This document shows, piece after piece, positions 1 through 8,301 of a stretch of DNA of 8,301 nt. The stretch lies in NCBI GenBank assembly GCA_004022145.1, contig RCNU01000062.1. One strand, given 5' to 3'. The notes below the pieces were generated by a model. That model made no database searches. It was not told the DNA's origin and worked only from the letters and a program-made list of their open reading frames with translations. The position numbers and the translations under genes were made by a program. The stretch comes from Paecilomyces variotii. Taxonomy: Eukaryota. Numbering within the stretch: position 1 is the first letter of the stretch; each line of letters starts with the position of its first letter.

Positions 1-1420
1 TCTTAGAGATAATAAACTCGCACTTTTAAATCTTTATATATAGGCCTATTTTATACAGCTTCTATAAGATAGCGCGGATATATTAAATATATTTAGAATA
101 AGTTATATTATATACTAAGATATTATTAAGGTATATAGTATAAAAAATATTAAGGTAATCTTATAGAGTATTATTAATAAACTGTTAAAATATTGCTAAT
201 ACTCTTATTAAGCTAAATAATATTATTAATAATTTAAATAGGCTAAGTTAAGTATAGAAGGCAGTTAGATATTCTTATCTTTTCTTAATATAAAGGTTAT
301 TAAACACAGAAATAATATTAATCTTTATAAAATACTTTATTCCTTTTAGATTATTTAAGGTCTTCTTAGTTAAAGGCAAGGGGTATTAATCTTTAATAGT
401 TATTATATTTAAGGCTTAGTAATCTATATAGATCTATATCCCTTTATTAAGCTTCTTAATAAATAGAATTAGAGATATAGTAGGCAATAAGTTTAAGCAA
501 ATAAATCCCTTTTTTAGGTTTTTTTTAATCTATTCCTTTAAAATCTTTAATTTATTTTAGGATATAATATATAGGGGTTTAAAGGAGAGCGACTTCTCCT
601 TTAATAACTTAATATTATAGTTATAAGAATAATATAATAGTAGGCGCTTAGCCTCCTTAGAAGAAAAGATATTAATATAATTCTTAAACTCCTTAGGCAA
701 TAAGTAGGCAGGGTCTTTTTTCTAGACTTATTTAATTCTTAGAGTAGTATCTAAGTTCTCTAAGGTAATTATAAATATTTAAGTATTTTTTTAAGTATAG
801 GTAAAATAGGCGGCTAGAGAAATAAAGGCTATATTTCTCTTTTTTAGTCTTTTAAATCTTAGGGATAAGTATTAAGATAAAGCTTTTAGGGGAATATTAT
901 ATAGGGCGGGTATTTTAATTAGCTTTAAGAATATATTGCAATTTTTTTAATAATAATTATTATTAAAAACAATATTATAAGCGGTAAATTATAAATGCGG
1001 GTTATAATACTTTAATTAAAGAAGTCTTAAAATAATAGAGTAGTACGCTAGTTAAATAATATAGAACTTAGTATTTTTCTTAAAATAATCTTTAATTCTT
1101 ATATTTATCTAAATATAGTATATAATCTTCTTATTCTTTAGTTTTCTTTTATTAAATATATATAGAGTAATTAAGCTCTTTAGGGGGATAGGCTCTAACT
1201 TCTAATTTTTAGCTTATTCTTAGTTTATAAATCCTTATCTTTTAGCTCTAATATTAAGTAGAGCATAAGTTAGTAGATAGATCTTTTTTTTCTTTTTTTC
1301 TAGTATTATAAGTAATATTATTAATTTTAATTATTATAGGTATTCTTTAAGGTTAATTTTATAAATAATAGCGGTAGAGATTTAGATAATATATAGTTCT
1401 TAAGCTTAGCTATAACTTAC
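1..1420 (-). pseudogene. pol: pol polyprotein pseudogene (aspartic protease + reverse transcriptase), RIPed, partial
   Basis: One minus frame gives TYALLNIRA (~1270-1244; de-RIPed ALLDTGA, protease active site) and YSIILRLL*LKYYNP (~1045-1000; PIILGLPWLKHHNP). It then gives FKPLYIIS..KKGFI..ILFIKK..IYIDY*ALN..IKD*YPLP..YFIKINI..YLTAF..YLNNILVY, where YLNN at 133-122 is a RIPed YLDD RT catalytic motif, and KCEF near the window edge. Many premature stops are TAA/TAG, derivable from CAA/CAG/CGA/TGG. Confidence 0.93.
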
Positions 1421-2596
1421 TTTAGGCTTACTCTTTTTACTAAAGACTAGCTAGGGGATAGACTATATAAGTCTAAGAATTAAATTACTTAGAGAGTCTA
1501 GGGATAGAGTTTATATATAGTTATAGTTTAAATCTTCTAATAGTTATCTAAGTGCGGGTAATCTCTAATATAATATTTTAGGGAGCTGTATTAAAAATAG
1601 GCGCTAGTTTTATAGTATAATAGGCTATATCCTCTCTTATTTAGGCATTTAGAAGTATTTAAGTCTATTAGGTTATATAGTTATATTAGGGCTAGTTTAC
1701 TTTTCTATATAGGGCTTTTCTAGAGCTGGCTATTATATTTTATAGTTAAGGCAGGACTTAGAGTAGGCGAGGGAGATTAAGTATACTAAGTAGGTTTTAA
1801 AATAGCAGTATAAGTCTTTATAATAAGGGGCTAATTTATAGTATACTAGCAGCGGTAGTTCTTAAGGTCTTATAAGAATTTAATAAATTAGTAATATTTA
1901 TAACTTAAGGGCTAGCTATATAATAATATTTTTTAAAGTTCTTAGCTAATAGCTTGCTTTAATAAGATAAATAGTATTTTTTTAAATATTTCTCCTTTTA
2001 GCGCTAGGCGCTAGAACTTAATAAAGAAAATTTTAAATTCCTTATTAATTTAATAGAGGTTAAATAGTTTATTATATATATTATTTATATAATTAGAATT
2101 ACTAAATATATATATAAAGATATCTAAAATCTCTTAGTAATTACTAAGAGTATAAGTCCTATCTCTAATATACAGTAATACTTGGGTATAAGGCATATTC
2201 TTTAAGCAATTAGTTATATAAGCTATATAGCTCTAGGGGATCAAAAATTAGTTTTAATTAATTATTATCTTCCTTTAGATCTAGGCTATAAAGCGCTAAA
2301 GGTCCTTTTAATCGCCTTTAAACTTATTAAGGTTAAAGAATCTCTTTAAAAGTCTAGGGGCAAAGGAAAATATAGTAGTAAGTATTTTAAATATTCTTAT
2401 TAGAGCAGCTATAGGCCTCTTAATATTAAGCTTAAGTTTAAATATAAATATAAGTATATTTATAGTAGGAGTAGCTATATAATAAATATAATCCTTCTTA
2501 AGGATAGCTTAAATATATTACTATTTCTTTTTATTAAGCTATATCTCCTAATATTGCTAAATAGTCTTAAGATTAATATTTTCTTATTTAAGTCTT
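1417..2596 (-). pseudogene. gag: gag pseudogene (capsid domain + CCHC zinc knuckle), RIPed; 5' boundary approximate
   Basis: Minus frame from 2340 reads FFNLNKFKGD*KDL*RFIA*I*RKIIIN*N*FLIP*SYIAYITNCLK, which de-RIPs to a typical fungal gypsy Gag (..PDKFEGDRKDLRRFVAQI..KM.VNRDRFP.PQSRMAYV.NRL). The same frame at 1599-1558 reads YF*YSSLKYYIRDY, a RIPed C-x2-C-x4-H-x4-C. Probable native end ...VKRVSLK* with stop at 1419-1417. Confidence 0.85.
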
Positions 2597-3103
2597 TATT
2601 ACGTAGCTGCGAATTCCTACTAAAGTTCTTAAAATTTTACCTTAGTTTATTTAATATATTAACTAGCTTTATTTATAAATAATTTAGCTCTAGTAATATA
2701 TTTATATATTAGGTAATAATAATTATATTATTCTAGCCTATAGCTAGCAGTAATATGCTTAATAAACTCTTCTAGGATTATTAGTAGGAACAGAGAAATT
2801 AGGGCAGGTATTATTAATAGTATTAACTCCTAGGTAAGAGCTATATAATATTAAAATATAGGCTTAAGGAGCGGGTTAAAATAAATAGAATAAAATAGTT
2901 AATACTAGAACTAGCTATAGGATCTCTATTTAGCTAATTTAAACTAAAACAGGCTATTATAGGCAGGTTTAGTAAATAAAATATAGCTTAAAGAGCTTAA
3001 ATTTGGATTAAGCTATATATTAAAGATATTTTCGCGAAGTTATATAATACCTTATATAAGCATTAGCTAGTAAATCTCTGTTTCTTACGCTAGCACTATA
3101 ACA
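2597..3103 (-). repeat. 5' LTR (~507 bp) of the minus-strand Ty3/gypsy element
   Basis: On + it begins TATTAC (RIPed TGTTAC) at 2597 and ends ATAACA (RIPed GTAACA) at 3103, giving TG...CA termini with a short inverted repeat. It abuts gag and is repeated at 4671-5171. There is no polypurine tract on + immediately left of 2597, consistent with a 5' LTR of a minus-strand element. Confidence 0.85.
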
Positions 3104-4670
3104 ATTAAAATATATAAAAACTTTTTACTTATCTTAAACTCTTTATTATAAAAAGTTATAATAATCTTAAGCTTTCTTTTTTTAAAAGAATCTTTCTTTT
3201 TTAAATATAATTTAAATCTTTATATATAATCTCTTTTATTATAGTTAAAATAGTAGTCTTTTTTTTTAAATTAATCTTATTTTATTAATAATTTAAACTT
3301 CTTTTTCTAGGATTTATTTAGTCTTTTACGCTAATTATTAGTCTTTTTTCTCTTTTATCTTAAGAAGAAGTCTTTTAATATATTATATATTAATTTATTT
3401 ATATTTAGTATAGTAAATAAGTTTAAAGGTTTATTTTTTTTAATTTATTTCTTAATTAATAATTAAAGATATTAATTAGTTAAAATTAATTAAGAAGTCT
3501 TAGTAGTTTAATAAGTCTATTTAAACTTTAAGTTATAGTTTTATATAGAAAATATAAGATTAAATAATCTTATTATTATTAAATCTTTTATCTTAATTTA
3601 GCTTTATATAAGCTTATTTAAAATAATATAAAAAAGCTCTAGTAGTTTAATTTAAATATTAAATTAAGATATAAAAATAATTTATTATATTTTATTCTTA
3701 ATAATATAGATTATTAAGTAAGTCTAGTAATTAACCTTTAAATTTATTTTAAATTAGTATTTAAAAGTTAAAATTCTCTTACTAATAAATTTAAGATTAA
3801 GCTAATTTTTTATTTAATAAGGCTATAGTATAAGTAACTTTTTTATCTTTTATTTTAAATAATAAAGTATTATAAGCTAAATATTTATTTATATACTAGT
3901 ATTATTAGTAATAAGTATTAAGTATAATAGCTCTATATCTCTATAGTTTAAATAGCTTAAGCTTTAATTATTTATTAATATAAGAAGTAATAAAAAGCTA
4001 TAAAAATCTCTTTTTATTAATAATTTATCTTTTATTTAAATTTAATTCCTTTTTAAGCTTTATAAAATATCTCTTAATATTTATAAATTAGCTTTAATAA
4101 TTAGTTATTAAGAACTAAGTTTAATAATTTTTAAGTTTTATAGAATATCTTCTATAAGTTAAGAATTAAAATTCTTATTCTTAAAGTTATAGAATATATT
4201 ATTATAGCTACTTATATTATTAAATTAAGTAATTTAAACTATAAAAAATAAGAGTTCTTAAAGATTATTAATAAATTATTCTATTAGTAATTATAATAAA
4301 AGAAGTAATAATTTTATATATTTAGCTTAGAGAAAAATTTACTAGTAAGATAAAGAATTAACTATTAAAATAAAGAGTTTAACTAGTATAAAGAAAGATT
4401 TATATTAAAGAAATCTAGTAATAAAGAGTTTATATAAATAAGAAAATAATAGAGTATATATTATACTAGAATAAATTATTAACTTTTAATAAGATAGTAA
4501 TTTAAAGCTTATTTATATTTTAATCCTTAAGTATTTCTTAACTTTATATTATATAAATCTTAAAAGTAAAAAGTATAGAGTTTAATTAATTACCTTAATA
4601 TTATATTTAGATTTAAGGCTTTATTATAATTCTATAAGCTTATACTTTAGCGAGAAGCTAAAGATATAAT
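3104..4670. repeat. Heavily RIPed sequence of unidentified origin (older repeat relic)
   Basis: More AT-rich than 1-3103, with CpA/TpG essentially absent. No protein motif could be recovered by eye on either strand. Confidence 0.6.
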
Positions 4671-5171
4671 ACTCTTACTAAAATTTTTAAAACCTTATTT
4701 TAATTTATTTAATATATTAATTAGCTTTATTTATAAATAACTTAGCCTTAATAATATATTTATATACTAAGTAATAATAATTATATTATTTTAGTCTATA
4801 ATTAGTAATAATATACTTAATAATCTCTTTTAGAATAATTAGTAAGAATAAAAGAATTAGAGTAAGTATTATTAATAATATTAACTTCTAGATAAAAGTT
4901 ATATAATATTAAAATATAGGCTTAAAAAGTAAGTTTAAATAAATAAAATAAGATAGTTAATATTAAGACTAGCTATAAAATCTTTATTTAGCTAATTTAA
5001 ACTAAAATAAGCTATTATAAGTAAGCTTAATAAATAAGATATAGCTTAAAAAGCTTAAATCTAGATTAAGCTATATATTAAAGATATCTTTATAAGATTA
5101 TATAACTTCTTATATAAGTATTAGCTAATAAATCTCTTTAGTAATTTATTTCTTACGCTAATACTATAATA
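4671..5171 (-). repeat. Second copy of the same LTR (solo or remnant LTR), more heavily RIPed, lacking ~16 bp at its left end
   Basis: Colinear direct repeat of 2613-3103 (e.g. 'atataatattaaaatataggcttaa', 'tatttagctaatttaaactaaaa', 'gattaagctatatattaaagatat', 'tttcttacgcta'). Differences are overwhelmingly transitions, plus a 10-bp insertion near 5137-5146. It ends ctataata versus ctataaca in copy 1. Confidence 0.88.
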
Positions 5172-6030
5172 ATAATAGTTTTTAAAATACTTTTAATAAT
5201 AACTTTAATATACTATTAAATTAATAAAGTTAGAGGATAAAGAAGTTATCTTCTATTAACTATATAAAGAAGTAATTATATAGCTAAGTTATTACTTAAA
5301 GCTTTTATACTTTATACTTTTATACTTTATTAAAGTAATAAGTAGCGCTAAGGTAATATTATATACTTTATATCTCTATTAATATCTCTTATAATTAATT
5401 AATAAGATATAGTTTTAAGCTATTATTTTTTTATAGATTTATTATTTAAATAGTCTTAATATAATATATTATTAAATATAATTTTATCTATAAAGAATTA
5501 TATATCTTTTATATTTAAGTAAGTATATTTTTTATTTATATACTTTATAAAATTATAAGATTAGCTTATTTAATAAAGCTAAGCCTTATTATATAAATAA
5601 ATAAGCTAATTAATTAAGTTAATTAGCTTTTTTAATAGAGAAAGCTACTTACTTAATTAAGTAAATTATATTATATTTTAATATTATAATAGTAAAAAAG
5701 ATTTAAAATCTATATTTAACTAATAATAAATTATAGTAAAAAAAGTAATAATTTAAGTATTAAATAAGTTTTTTATAAGATTTATTTATTAAAAAAAGTT
5801 AAGCTTTAATAATAAGTAATATTAAAGTAATTAAAGCTACTATTAGTATTATAAAAGAATTAAATACTATAATTATATAATAGCGCTAATAAGCTTTATT
5901 AATATATTTAAATTATAATATTAAAAGTTATATAAGAATTAAATACTTTAATTAATATAGTAATTAAATATTATAAAATTTTACTACTATTTAAGTATAA
6001 AATTATATAATTATTTATTTAAGTAATTAA
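5172..6030. repeat. Heavily RIPed sequence of unidentified origin
   Basis: Near-total loss of CpA/TpG and very low GC. No motif recovered. Confidence 0.6.
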
Positions 6031-6485
6031 GGTAATCTGCCTAGTTAGGTAATCCGGTTAGCAGGGAATTACATTATAGTTATAGTAGAGAATGACTAAG
6101 CTAGATGACATAAGAAAAGACTACATGTCCCCGCCCCCTCCGGCAACCAAAGATAACAACCTATTCGTCTTCCTGTACTGCAAGAACTTCTCCACGAGGC
6201 CCCGGAGTTAAACAGAGCGACCATGGTCAAAGTCGAAGCATTTGCTGTTGAGCAAGTATGTCCTTCTGTATTGTACGTGCCTATACCTTGCCTCACGTGA
6301 GTGGTGATGGAAAGATCAACCGTGGACCGGCCTCAGCTTCCGACTTCGCTTCTTCGACCTACGCCTTCCCAAGTAGAATGGAATGGTTCATCACTAGGCA
6401 AGAGCAACTCATAGCTGGGAAACTGGTTTTATCGTGATTTTGTAAGTGTCCCTCGGTTTACTCCTAGATCATCACAACTGAGATC

Positions 6486-7496
6486 ATGGCGACTACAGAC
6501 CGCGAGCGAATGCGCCCACCGGCACTGTCATCATCCCCCGCGCGAGTCCACACGATGTCAGCTGCGTCGTCAAAGTCATCTGGGTTCTCGGATGCAACCA
6601 AGCTAGAAACTCTACGCCTTGCGGGTCCCCATTGTTGGTCGTGCAGTACCTGGCGGCCGCAGATATGCCATGTAGTTGCACTGGAAGATACGCAGGTGTG
6701 CTATAACTTAACTCTTCTATCTACCTATTAAAATTGGGCTAATAAATCTAAATAGACGGATATATGGGAACAAGCCGGCTTGTTCACTTTTCCATATCGC
6801 TCTACCTCGAATGCTGTCCCTCTGTGCCCATCTTGTCACGTCGAATTTGATCGCTCCATTGACCCCGGCTACGTCTTTTTCCCGAGCGATCTCAAGTTTT
6901 TCATAGACTTTGAACTTGAAGACCGAGAACGACGAGAGACTGCAGCTGCGAATGGTAATCCAGTTAAGCGACAAGTCCCAGGAGCCATCCAGTACCGAAA
7001 ATACCAGCAGGACAAAGGTCTAGTTTCGTCAGACGCTATCGGTGGATTGTACAGACGTGTATTCCTGAAAAACTTTCTTCTTGATGGGAGATACCCTGAT
7101 GTACTGCGGGACTGCTCTACTCCCAAAGAGTGGCATGGCAATCCGATAGCTTCGATCAGACGTGCTTTCGCAGCGCTTGGTAGCCCACGAATCTATGTTC
7201 TAGGTTCCGAGATCCGCAAAGAACTCGAATTATTGCGAGATCTTTACTTCGCCGACGTATTTCAGAGTGGCTCTGGTCCTCTTCTTAAACGGCATTTGGA
7301 GGAGGAGGAGGAGGAGGAAGACGATGCACCACCAGCAAAGAAAGCCACCAGAGATCGGGGGCCACAACATCTCACCGATACGTTAGAAGAAAAACACTCA
7401 AGCCAGTCTGTAAAAGACGCAGTCTGGGCGCTGGGGCCAAATTCTACTTCTAGCACCGCCATGCAGCTCTATGCCCCTCTATTTCCATGTCTTTAA
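6486..7496 (+). CDS. HNH endonuclease-domain protein (fungal HNH_2-like, Zn treble-clef), 316 aa; exons 6486-6695 and 6756-7496
   Basis: The ORF-track 81-aa and 238-aa ORFs join in frame across a phase-0 60-nt intron (...EDTQ|TDIWEQAGLFTF...). The joined protein has C50-W-S-C53...QICH62VV...SN89AVPLC94PSC97H98VEFD, matching CxxC..H..N..LCxxCH..FD of HNH nucleases. The C-terminal part has an acidic run (E7D2) followed by PPAKK. There is no hydrophobic signal peptide. Confidence 0.88.
6696..6755 (+). other. Spliceosomal intron (60 nt) in the HNH gene
   Basis: CAG|GTGTGC donor, GCTAAT branch site at 6738-6743, and TAG acceptor at 6753-6755. It is AT-rich, contains the in-frame stop of the first ORF, and its removal restores a continuous HNH motif. 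Confidence 0.88.
7298..7318 (+). repeat. (GGA)7 coding microsatellite giving a poly-Glu tract
   Basis: ggaggaggaggaggaggagga read directly; encodes EEEEEEE. Confidence 0.9.
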
Positions 7497-7860
7497 GGAT
7501 GTCAAGCGCGGGGAAGAACCAACACGAATGTCATTGTCGCCATTGGCTTGAGTCTGTGACTTATAAGTATGCCTTCGTCGAATCTCACCGCTGGGCATGC
7601 GACTGGGTTAAGCCTGTAGCGGGGACAATCGCCTTTGGATTCGGGTTCACTGATTATAACGGCTAAACTAAAGATAGGAGTGTTCAGTATATATTAGTAG
7701 TTTCCCTAGCTTTTTTAGTACCTTCTTGTTGGAGCCCCCCTCTGGTGGTCTATGCTGGGCGCCCCTTTGTACTGGCGATCATGTGACTGGGAGATCCTAT
7801 ATAGGACTTGCCGGCTTCCTAGTTAGTAATTAAGCAAGCTTCTTACCGCTTCCTTTAGGT

Positions 7861-8301
7861 TATATTGCCTTTATTTAAATCCCCTAGCTATAGCTATAAT
7901 TATTTATTATATAATTATTTTAAATTAACTAATTAATTCTATAGAATCTAATTATTTATATATTAATTTTTTAGCATTTAATTCTATTATAAATTAGTAG
8001 TTTTATTAGTTATATAAATATTAAAAATTTTTATCTAAGTTTAATTAAAGAGGCTTAAACTCTTATTTTTAAGAGAAAGTTTAAATAATTATACTACTAT
8101 AATTAATAATATAATTATTTAACTTAATTCTTAAATGCTAGCTTATCTTATAAAGGTTATTAAATATTATTTAGAAACTAATCTTAATATTAATACCTCT
8201 TAAGAAAGGTAAATAAAAGGAATAAGGCTCTTTTACCTTAAAAAAATTCTTATTAACTCTAGAGATTTTATAGAAAATTAAGGCTATAGCTGCTAAAATC
8301 T
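7861..8301. repeat. RIP-mutated AT-rich flank, unidentified repeat relic
   Basis: Return to very low GC with TpA excess and CpA/TpG depletion. No ORFs. Confidence 0.8.

Follow-up and report, generated by a model that had tools for sequence, protein, structure and literature searches.

The locus analyzed here raises the question of why a single intact gene is found in DNA that repeat-induced point mutation (RIP) has otherwise destroyed. The window, by which the whole stretch of 8,301 nucleotides (nt) is meant, is one 8301-bp scaffold of Paecilomyces variotii (assembly GCA_004022145.1, contig RCNU01000062.1). The gene, which encodes a predicted HNH nuclease, lies on its plus strand within an island of normal base composition at positions 6031 to 7860. 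A first-pass annotation, made from the sequence alone, had proposed a lineage-specific conflict gene, possibly with a role in its own mobility. The answer reached here is more ordinary. The gene is probably a resident, single-copy and expressed nuclear gene of P. variotii, which encodes a stand-alone, zinc-stabilized His-Me-finger nuclease of the HNH_2-like type and belongs to a large uncharacterized family of the Pezizomycotina. It looks like an ordinary single-copy gene that was spared by RIP, and a selfish or conflict role is not demonstrated.

The un-RIPed island inside RIPed DNA, as described in the first-pass annotation, is real. Its overall guanine-cytosine (GC) content is 0.49, and 300-nt windows range from 0.41 to 0.53 across 6001-7800 compared to 0.10-0.30 in the flanks. 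Both boundaries are sharp, and to the right of the island the GC content of such windows drops again to 0.15-0.20. The same division is seen in two dinucleotide indices, (CpA+TpG)/(ApC+GpT) and TpA/ApT, for which the usual RIP thresholds are 0.75 and 0.89. The first index is 0.21, 0.27, 0.07 and 0.00 in four segments of the AT-rich left flank (1-6030) and 0.25 in the AT-rich right flank, which extends from 7861 to the scaffold end at 8301 with a GC content of 0.17, whereas it reaches 1.07 in the island. The second index is 1.38-1.55 in the left and 1.33 in the right flank and 0.99 in the island. The 6030-nt left flank retains no more than 31 CpA and 14 TpG dinucleotides. Both flanks combine the depletion of CpA and TpG with the excess of TpA by which RIP is recognized, and a scan of the whole window for open reading frames (ORFs) found none of at least 50 amino acids (aa) outside the island.

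The flanks appear to be mutated repeat DNA, putatively relics of transposons. This is supported indirectly by the RIP signature, by a 522-nt direct repeat with 82 % identity and by a less mutated copy of flank sequence elsewhere. The two copies of the repeat (repeat family D1) are located on the plus strand at 2615-3125 and 4673-5194 with a spacing of 2058 nt (blastn E-value 2e-146). They could be a pair of long terminal repeats (LTRs) or tandem fragments from one element. The less mutated copy corresponds to 5800-6106 and was found in a contig of another sample, from which the window differs mainly by transitions, with A/T in the window and G/C in the other copy. RIP targets duplicated DNA, and its action in P. 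variotii has been demonstrated by experiment in a study in which AT-rich regions accounted for about 8.5 % of one assembly and 13.8 % of another (PMC6300479). The island would exist because RIP mutates only duplicated DNA. Repeats inserting around the gene would have been RIPed to 10-25 % GC, and the unique gene, together with its promoter and untranslated regions (UTRs), would have been spared by RIP and kept by purifying selection.

The structure of the gene was read from contigs of four runs (X9, X15, X17 and X18), spliced RNA contigs among them, that were compared with the window; such contigs can show splicing but cannot rank expression levels or show absence. The single intact, spliced gene with a 60-nt intron that had been predicted from the sequence is confirmed by these transcripts. 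This intron, here intron 2 (6696-6755, GT..AG, in frame with stops), is spliced out in X17, X18 and X9, which belong to three studies; the joint was aligned at 6693->6754 and the cut is read two places rightward. A further intron of 57 nt (intron 1, 6442-6498, GT..AG) is located in the 5'UTR and is spliced out in the same runs, with a joint at 6441->6499 and sides of 105-195 nt. The spliced contig of X9 spans 6164-7839 without any difference from the window, and an unspliced contig of X15 spans 6088-7727. Taking the limits of the X9 contig, the first, non-coding exon covers 6164-6441, with the true 5' end at or before 6164, and the 3'UTR covers 7497-7839.

The start codon assumed in the first-pass annotation, ATG 6486, lies inside intron 1, and therefore the 316-aa product has to be revised. 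After splicing, a TGA in frame with the main ORF (6435-6437) lies ahead of the junction, and 6510 is the position of the first ATG in this frame. The coding sequence (CDS) consists of 6510-6695 and 6756-7496 and encodes 308 aa, so that earlier residue numbers are reduced by 8. The coding part of exon 2 (6510-6695) contributes 62 codons with the start, the first Cys-x2-Cys (CxxC) pair and the general-base His. The last coding exon (6756-7496), identified as ORF P0001, contributes 246 codons and the TAA stop and encodes the second half of the HNH core, a helical extension, a disordered linker and a C-terminal element. The same N-terminal methionine is found in P0057, an ORF of 306 aa in a spliced RNA contig that stems from a different strain, and the N-terminus of the Histoplasma homolog P0008 is similar to that of the 308-aa protein.

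The gene had already been annotated. Over its whole length, the translation of the last exon matches a P. variotii protein cluster with 100 % identity, and several strains of the species carry an annotation of the protein. The entry P0054 (293 aa; UniRef name 'HNH nuclease domain-containing protein'), a member of this cluster, corresponds exactly to the spliced CDS when translation begins at the second ATG at 6555. In the 311-aa models P0003 and P0053 from other P. variotii strains, the real 5'UTR intron is used, followed by a frame hop by which the first CxxC pair is lost. These models are probably mis-annotated, and the homologous sequences favor the 308-aa reading.

The spliced 5'UTR is 289 nt long and contains three upstream ATGs, which open ORFs of 25, 59 and 35 aa. 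The longest of these, at 6258-6437, is closed by the TGA at 6435-6437 and shares the frame of the main ORF, from which it is separated by this TGA and five codons. No convincing family match was found for it, the best being Tachystatin_A with an E-value of 0.046, below the cut-off. The upstream ORFs and the 5'UTR intron suggest translational restraint. The in-frame position of the 59-aa ORF may allow translational control or read-through. Two further observations on the transcripts come from X18. One contig indicates a possible alternative 5'UTR intron at 6273-6336 (64 nt, GT..AG), which is weak with a side of 27 nt. Another stops at 7210 in a run of 22 A, which internal priming could explain, as could an alternative poly(A) site within the CDS.

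The HNH (beta-beta-alpha-metal) core is encoded at 6633-6851 and is split by intron 2. It contains, in order, Cys-x2-Cys, His, Asn, Cys-x2-Cys-His and Asp. A hidden Markov model search had been predicted to return an HNH_2/PF13391-like domain, and HNH_2 was indeed the only Pfam match of P0054 (residues 30-80 on profile positions 4-60 of 66), with 19.5 bits and an E-value of 8.9e-4, just under the gathering cut-off of 21. Searched separately, the first-half exon had no match and the last exon matched HNH_2 with an E-value of 0.03. Among related proteins, HNH_2 was found at E<=0.01 in 14 of the 27 close homologs and at E<=0.001 in eight of 15 long family members, and full-length relatives exceed the cut-off with 26.9, 30.4, 32.2 and 38.4 bits. 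Judged by sequence, the protein is thus best described as HNH_2-like, at the edge of the Pfam model. The nearest clusters in the ESM Atlas are fungal hypothetical proteins, some of them with HNH_2. PADLOC and NCBIfam returned no match for four family proteins, which says little since both libraries are centered on prokaryotes.

The residues named in the first-pass annotation (H62, N89 and H98, and C50, C53, C94 and C97) were the right ones and align with conserved family columns. In the 308-aa protein they correspond to H54, N81 and H90, and to C42, C45, C86 and C89. In P0054 they are H39, N66 and H75 together with C27, C30, C71 and C74, to which D79 can be added. To judge from the alignment, every catalytic and metal-binding residue is retained in the window protein. 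Conservation was counted in a 190-sequence family alignment as the sequences with the residue out of those with any residue at the column. The four Cys of the two CxxC pairs are conserved in 100/104, 96/98, 155/157 and 153/158, and the counts are 148/154 for the hairpin Asn, 143/158 for the His of the helix and 147/161 for the Asp that follows four residues later. The general-base His is less constant (82/101). Members lacking this His include P0004, P0010, P0016 and P0024, and either inactive paralogs are common or the gene models are faulty. The columns that never vary are found mostly in the helical extension after the HNH motif.

An AlphaFold model, built with an alignment of 24 sequences, has a mean predicted local distance difference test score (pLDDT) of 77.4 and a predicted template modeling score of 0.68. 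It consists of a globular body at about residues 9-217, a disordered acidic and basic linker at 218-267 and a small ordered C-terminal element. The pLDDT is 85-97 in the blocks 11-150 and 171-210, and 75-79 in 151-170. In an exhaustive structural alignment, the best solved structure was TagI (Z 8.6, root mean square deviation 2.8 A, 109 residues aligned), followed by VcaM4I with Z 7.1 and, further down, by EcoKMcrA with Z 4.3 and by the HNH domains of Cas9, IscB and Cap5 with Z 3-4. Foldseek likewise ranked TagI first (probability 0.95, E-value 0.12), with EcoKMcrA and Cap5 also among its best solved matches. Z-scores of 7-8 are usual for best matches in general, and therefore the weight of this result lies in the fact that all top rows are HNH nucleases. 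The predicted structure has the beta-beta-alpha-metal (His-Me finger / HNH) fold, in agreement with the HNH nuclease assignment of the first-pass annotation.

Based on this model, a mechanism can be proposed. The Cys4 site formed by the two CxxC pairs would join the beta-hairpin and the helix, with the His after the first CxxC acting as the putative general base and the Asn bracing the hairpin. The helix His and the Asp four residues on would bind the catalytic divalent metal for DNA cleavage, and the substrate would be bound by the conserved helical extension and the C-terminal element without a separate reader domain. By its fold and residues, the protein may therefore be described as a candidate zinc-stabilized, metal-dependent nuclear DNA nuclease. 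Its N-terminus is Ser/Ala-rich and polar without a visible hydrophobic stretch, in line with the earlier statement that a signal peptide is lacking. A conserved KR and a basic cluster in the disordered linker resemble the consensus of a nuclear localization signal (NLS). The NLS-like motif noted before is therefore present and conserved, and it would direct the protein to the nucleus; of the location, an intracellular and possibly nuclear one is a reasonable reading of the sequence. The same linker contains a Glu run at 7296-7316 that shows an in-frame length polymorphism, with seven Glu in the window and five in P0057.

The closest structural relatives of the protein are the nuclease domains of bacterial Type IV restriction enzymes. 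The extended HNH fold of TagI (PDB 6ghs) resembles that of the fungal protein, with model residues 7-201 placed on chain residues 161-311. The nuclease domain of VcaM4I (PDB 6yex) is similar over 116 aligned residues, and EcoKMcrA (6ghc) is a more distant fold relative. The matches to TagI and VcaM4I are not confined to the minimal HNH core but take in flanking helices as well, although the sequence identity is only 10-19 %. The architectures differ. Type IV enzymes carry a reader domain for modified bases, which is N-terminal in the bacterial enzymes (SRA in TagI and EVE in VcaM4I), whereas the fungal protein has no such domain, with HNH_2 as its sole Pfam domain and one globular body. In the 293-aa model its HNH core begins near residue 27, and it is a eukaryotic protein encoded by a gene with introns, outside any restriction system.

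Other comparisons suggested by the location or the domain are less close. The CR-HNH module of Crinkler effectors is, like the fungal protein, a eukaryotic HNH_2-type nuclease domain. However, CR-HNH is the C-terminal toxin module of Crinklers, whereas the fungal HNH is N-terminal in a stand-alone protein, and the CRN header for secretion and translocation was not found by Pfam or in the N-terminal sequence. A classification of the His-Me finger superfamily (Jablonska et al. 2017, PMC5714182) lists HNH_2 both under group 6 (AlwI/BbrI/HphI), to which 120 fungal sequences are assigned, and under group 38, the CR-HNH of effectors from eukaryotic pathogens. The AvrLm effectors in the AT-isochores of Leptosphaeria maculans are likewise lone intact genes amid RIP-degraded repeats, but unlike them the fungal HNH protein is neither small nor secreted nor lineage-specific. 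Homing endonucleases sit in a self-splicing intron or intein, whereas this gene is free-standing with two GT..AG spliceosomal introns of its own.

The breadth of the family does not fit a lineage-specific gene. A profile search across 1.84 billion representatives, clustered at 50 % identity, identified 867 clusters at E<=1e-3, of which 577 remain at E<=1e-10 and 247 at E<=1e-30, mostly with full-length matches. The family spans Eurotiomycetes, Dothideomycetes and lichen-forming Lecanoromycetes within the Pezizomycotina. The named members belong to Aspergillus, Penicillium, Paecilomyces, Thermoascus, Histoplasma, Emergomyces, Helicocarpus and Microsporum, to Cryomyces of the Dothideomycetes and to the lichen fungi Caloplaca, Teloschistes and Variospora, and all are labeled 'hypothetical' or 'HNH nuclease domain-containing'. 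Several deposited homolog models contain an unspliced insert exactly at the position of intron 2, and therefore the intron site is old. A literature search returned no functional study of this fungal family in the texts available, in which such genes are only listed in tables.

A quick maximum-likelihood tree was calculated from 38 rows, comprising all named proteins and five unnamed ones out of about 220, with support given by the Shimodaira-Hasegawa-like approximate likelihood ratio test (SH-aLRT) only. The window protein is located in a clade of 15 rows (SH-aLRT 97) that contains a pair from the Onygenales, a group of Paecilomyces and Aspergillus ellipticus and a Penicillium group. A second clade of 13 rows (SH-aLRT 97) contains other copies from Histoplasma, Emergomyces, Aspergillus and Thermoascus. 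The sub-tree around the window protein roughly tracks taxonomy. The tree is compatible with two or more old lineages of paralogs, inherited vertically and extensively lost, and shows no indication of transfer. A second copy of the family with 53 % identity is present in P. variotii strain No. 5.

Presence/absence variation across strains, raised in the first-pass annotation, was not found among the isolates. The stretch is wholly or partly present in 20 of the 24 listed runs from eight studies, and all eight isolate runs (X1-X8) contain 0.91-0.99 of the sampled words; a share of 0.00 in X21-X24 or contig-free parts in some runs are no evidence of absence. Metagenomes and metatranscriptomes from food fermentations and grain contain it as well. 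Compared to the allele of X17 and X18, the last exon shows seven coding differences, of which four are synonymous and three non-synonymous, and P0057 has one further replacement near the N-terminus and the Glu run that is two residues shorter. These allele differences do not suggest diversifying selection, with seven sites being too few for a firm ratio of non-synonymous to synonymous rates. Together with the intact, spliced and transcribed ORF they fit the earlier proposal that the gene may have been kept by selection as a single copy.

The edges of the island differ from its core. The left edge (6031-6129) and the right edge (7728-7860) have a normal GC content, and their summed contig depth in X15 is 381 and 1269, respectively, compared to 32.5 over the gene. 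The left edge is therefore multi-copy or occurs in other contexts, as X9 contigs covering 6096-6129 continue into unlike sequence from 6126 and 6129. The right edge is a multi-copy piece that other strains lack at this position. At 7727, contigs of X15, X17 and X18 depart from the window sequence and other contigs join there. The repeat junctions beside the gene are polymorphic, and the right junction differs between strains. The unique core covers about 6130-7727 and is barely longer than the transcript. A comparison of the two edges showed no direct or inverted similarity above shuffled sequences (score 22, shuffle maxima 23 and 25), and blastn found no mutual homology between the left and the right flank. 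An island bounded by LTRs or terminal inverted repeats was rejected, since neither the two edges nor the two flanks resemble each other.

The surroundings of homologs were scanned at eight homologous metagenome loci, covering 128 ORFs of at least 120 aa. Among these, no transposon protein (reverse transcriptase, transposase or tyrosine recombinase) and no common neighbor or partner was found. Some homologs adjoin housekeeping genes (PRP4-like WD40, SdhB-like and homoserine dehydrogenase). One copy (L020) has a gene with NACHT (NPHP3_N) and ankyrin domains 1.4 kb downstream (L020:12239-14538), and another (L027) has an ORF with a HET domain about 0.9 kb upstream (L027:8728-9126). HET genes and NOD-like receptor (NLR) genes are very numerous in filamentous ascomycetes, and therefore two such neighbors among eight loci mean little. 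A preference of the homologs for RIP-block neighborhoods was also considered, using six sequence clusters of metagenome loci, each with a flank of 5 kb or more. It did not hold up, as four of the six have a stretch of less than 35 % GC within 2 kb and only one of these four (L027-L029) is RIP-like, with an index of 0.29-0.58. The flanks of L008, L010, L017, L021, L022 and L025, on fungal contigs from metagenomes, contain long AT-rich blocks with 22-35 % GC in which CpA and TpG are not depleted (index 1.2-2.1). By their composition, these blocks appear to have an origin other than classical CpA-type RIP.

The location of the gene invites explanations other than that of an ordinary gene spared by RIP. 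It could be a conflict or selfish nuclease, for example a meiotic-drive toxin, an executor of non-self recognition and cell death or a defense nuclease, kept in a repeat-rich compartment with fast turnover. The position between RIPed repeats, the scatter of the named species with several paralogs in some genomes, the non-self-recognition-type neighbors at two of the eight homologous loci (L020 and L027), the resemblance to nuclease modules of bacterial modification-dependent restriction enzymes and the tight translational control suggested by the upstream ORFs are all compatible with this. Nevertheless, we consider it unlikely, because the eight loci share no partner or antidote gene and some copies stand beside housekeeping genes, the gene is present in every isolate run, the alleles give no hint of positive selection, the sub-tree follows taxonomy and PADLOC has no match. 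A fusion to NLR or other domains was not seen either, as the 15 long members had only HNH_2 or nothing and no longer form was found at 514-2000 aa, although this search provides weak evidence. With 867 clusters over the Pezizomycotina and a conserved intron position in addition, the proposal of a lineage-specific conflict gene is not upheld. In a more speculative variant, which is improbable on the present data, the family would be a 'restriction-like' nuclease of the fungal nucleus, a stand-alone relative of the bacterial modification-dependent nuclease modules, with modified, RIPed or invading DNA as its target, or else a cell-death or drive toxin restrained by upstream ORFs. The location in RIPed heterochromatin would then be no accident, and the analogy would draw on the fold resemblance, this location and the two suggestive neighbors.

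Alternatively, a transposon, a captured gene flanked by LTRs, a Starship or a similar mobile element might have brought in the island after RIP, either as cargo or as part of the element. Both edges are multi-copy, the junction at 7727 varies between strains, the gene is found on a small unplaced scaffold, and Starships are reportedly active in P. variotii. This origin is nevertheless quite improbable, given the missing similarity between edges and between flanks and the normal GC content, and no ORF of a reverse transcriptase, transposase or tyrosine recombinase was found beside the eight homologous loci. The two spliceosomal introns, one of them at a site conserved across the family, show that the gene is not a retro-copy, and the edge pieces are more simply explained as termini of neighboring repeat insertions. 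The mobility or selfish role suggested earlier therefore finds no support in edge repeats, transposon proteins, a partner gene or fusions. Least probable of all, and only a slight chance in our view, is a catalytically dead protein in which the HNH scaffold serves as a zinc-finger-like module for binding DNA or protein and the function lies in the more strongly conserved C-terminal region. The location of the invariant columns mostly outside the HNH motif and the missing general-base His in 19 of 101 members would fit, but the window protein keeps all catalytic and metal-binding residues, and the Asn, the helix His and the Asp are each found in 91-96 % of the sequences with a residue at the column.

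Several points weigh against the reading as an ordinary resident nuclease gene. The window is an 8.3-kb scaffold only, so that a large mobile element, e.g. a Starship, is possible, and the single-copy status is presumed. The family is patchy among named species, with several paralogs in some genomes, which fits an accessory gene too, and the count of synonymous and non-synonymous differences rests on seven sites. For the nuclease assignment, the protein's own HNH_2 score is 1.5 bits under the Pfam cut-off, and the family profile had no match at E<=1 to solved structures by sequence. The replacement of the general-base His affects even the closest named homolog from Aspergillus ellipticus (His to Pro). 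What the family conserves may therefore be something other than nuclease activity, although errors in gene models may account for part of these losses.

For P. variotii, the analysis provides an RNA-supported gene model that has two introns, encodes 308 aa and begins with a long 5'UTR containing upstream ORFs, and which corrects both the 311-aa models and the start at ATG 6486, and it shows that the repeat junctions at the gene edges vary between strains. For the Pezizomycotina, it reveals a sizeable family of stand-alone HNH proteins that, by fold, come closest to the nuclease domains of Type IV restriction enzymes. If this family acted in genome defense or conflict, it would be of real interest; such a role is not shown by the present data. 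The case can also serve as a calibration, since a lone intact gene in a RIP graveyard is striking in the raw sequence, yet it proved to be an annotated and expressed member of a widespread family. Its survival agrees with what the confinement of RIP to duplicated DNA predicts.

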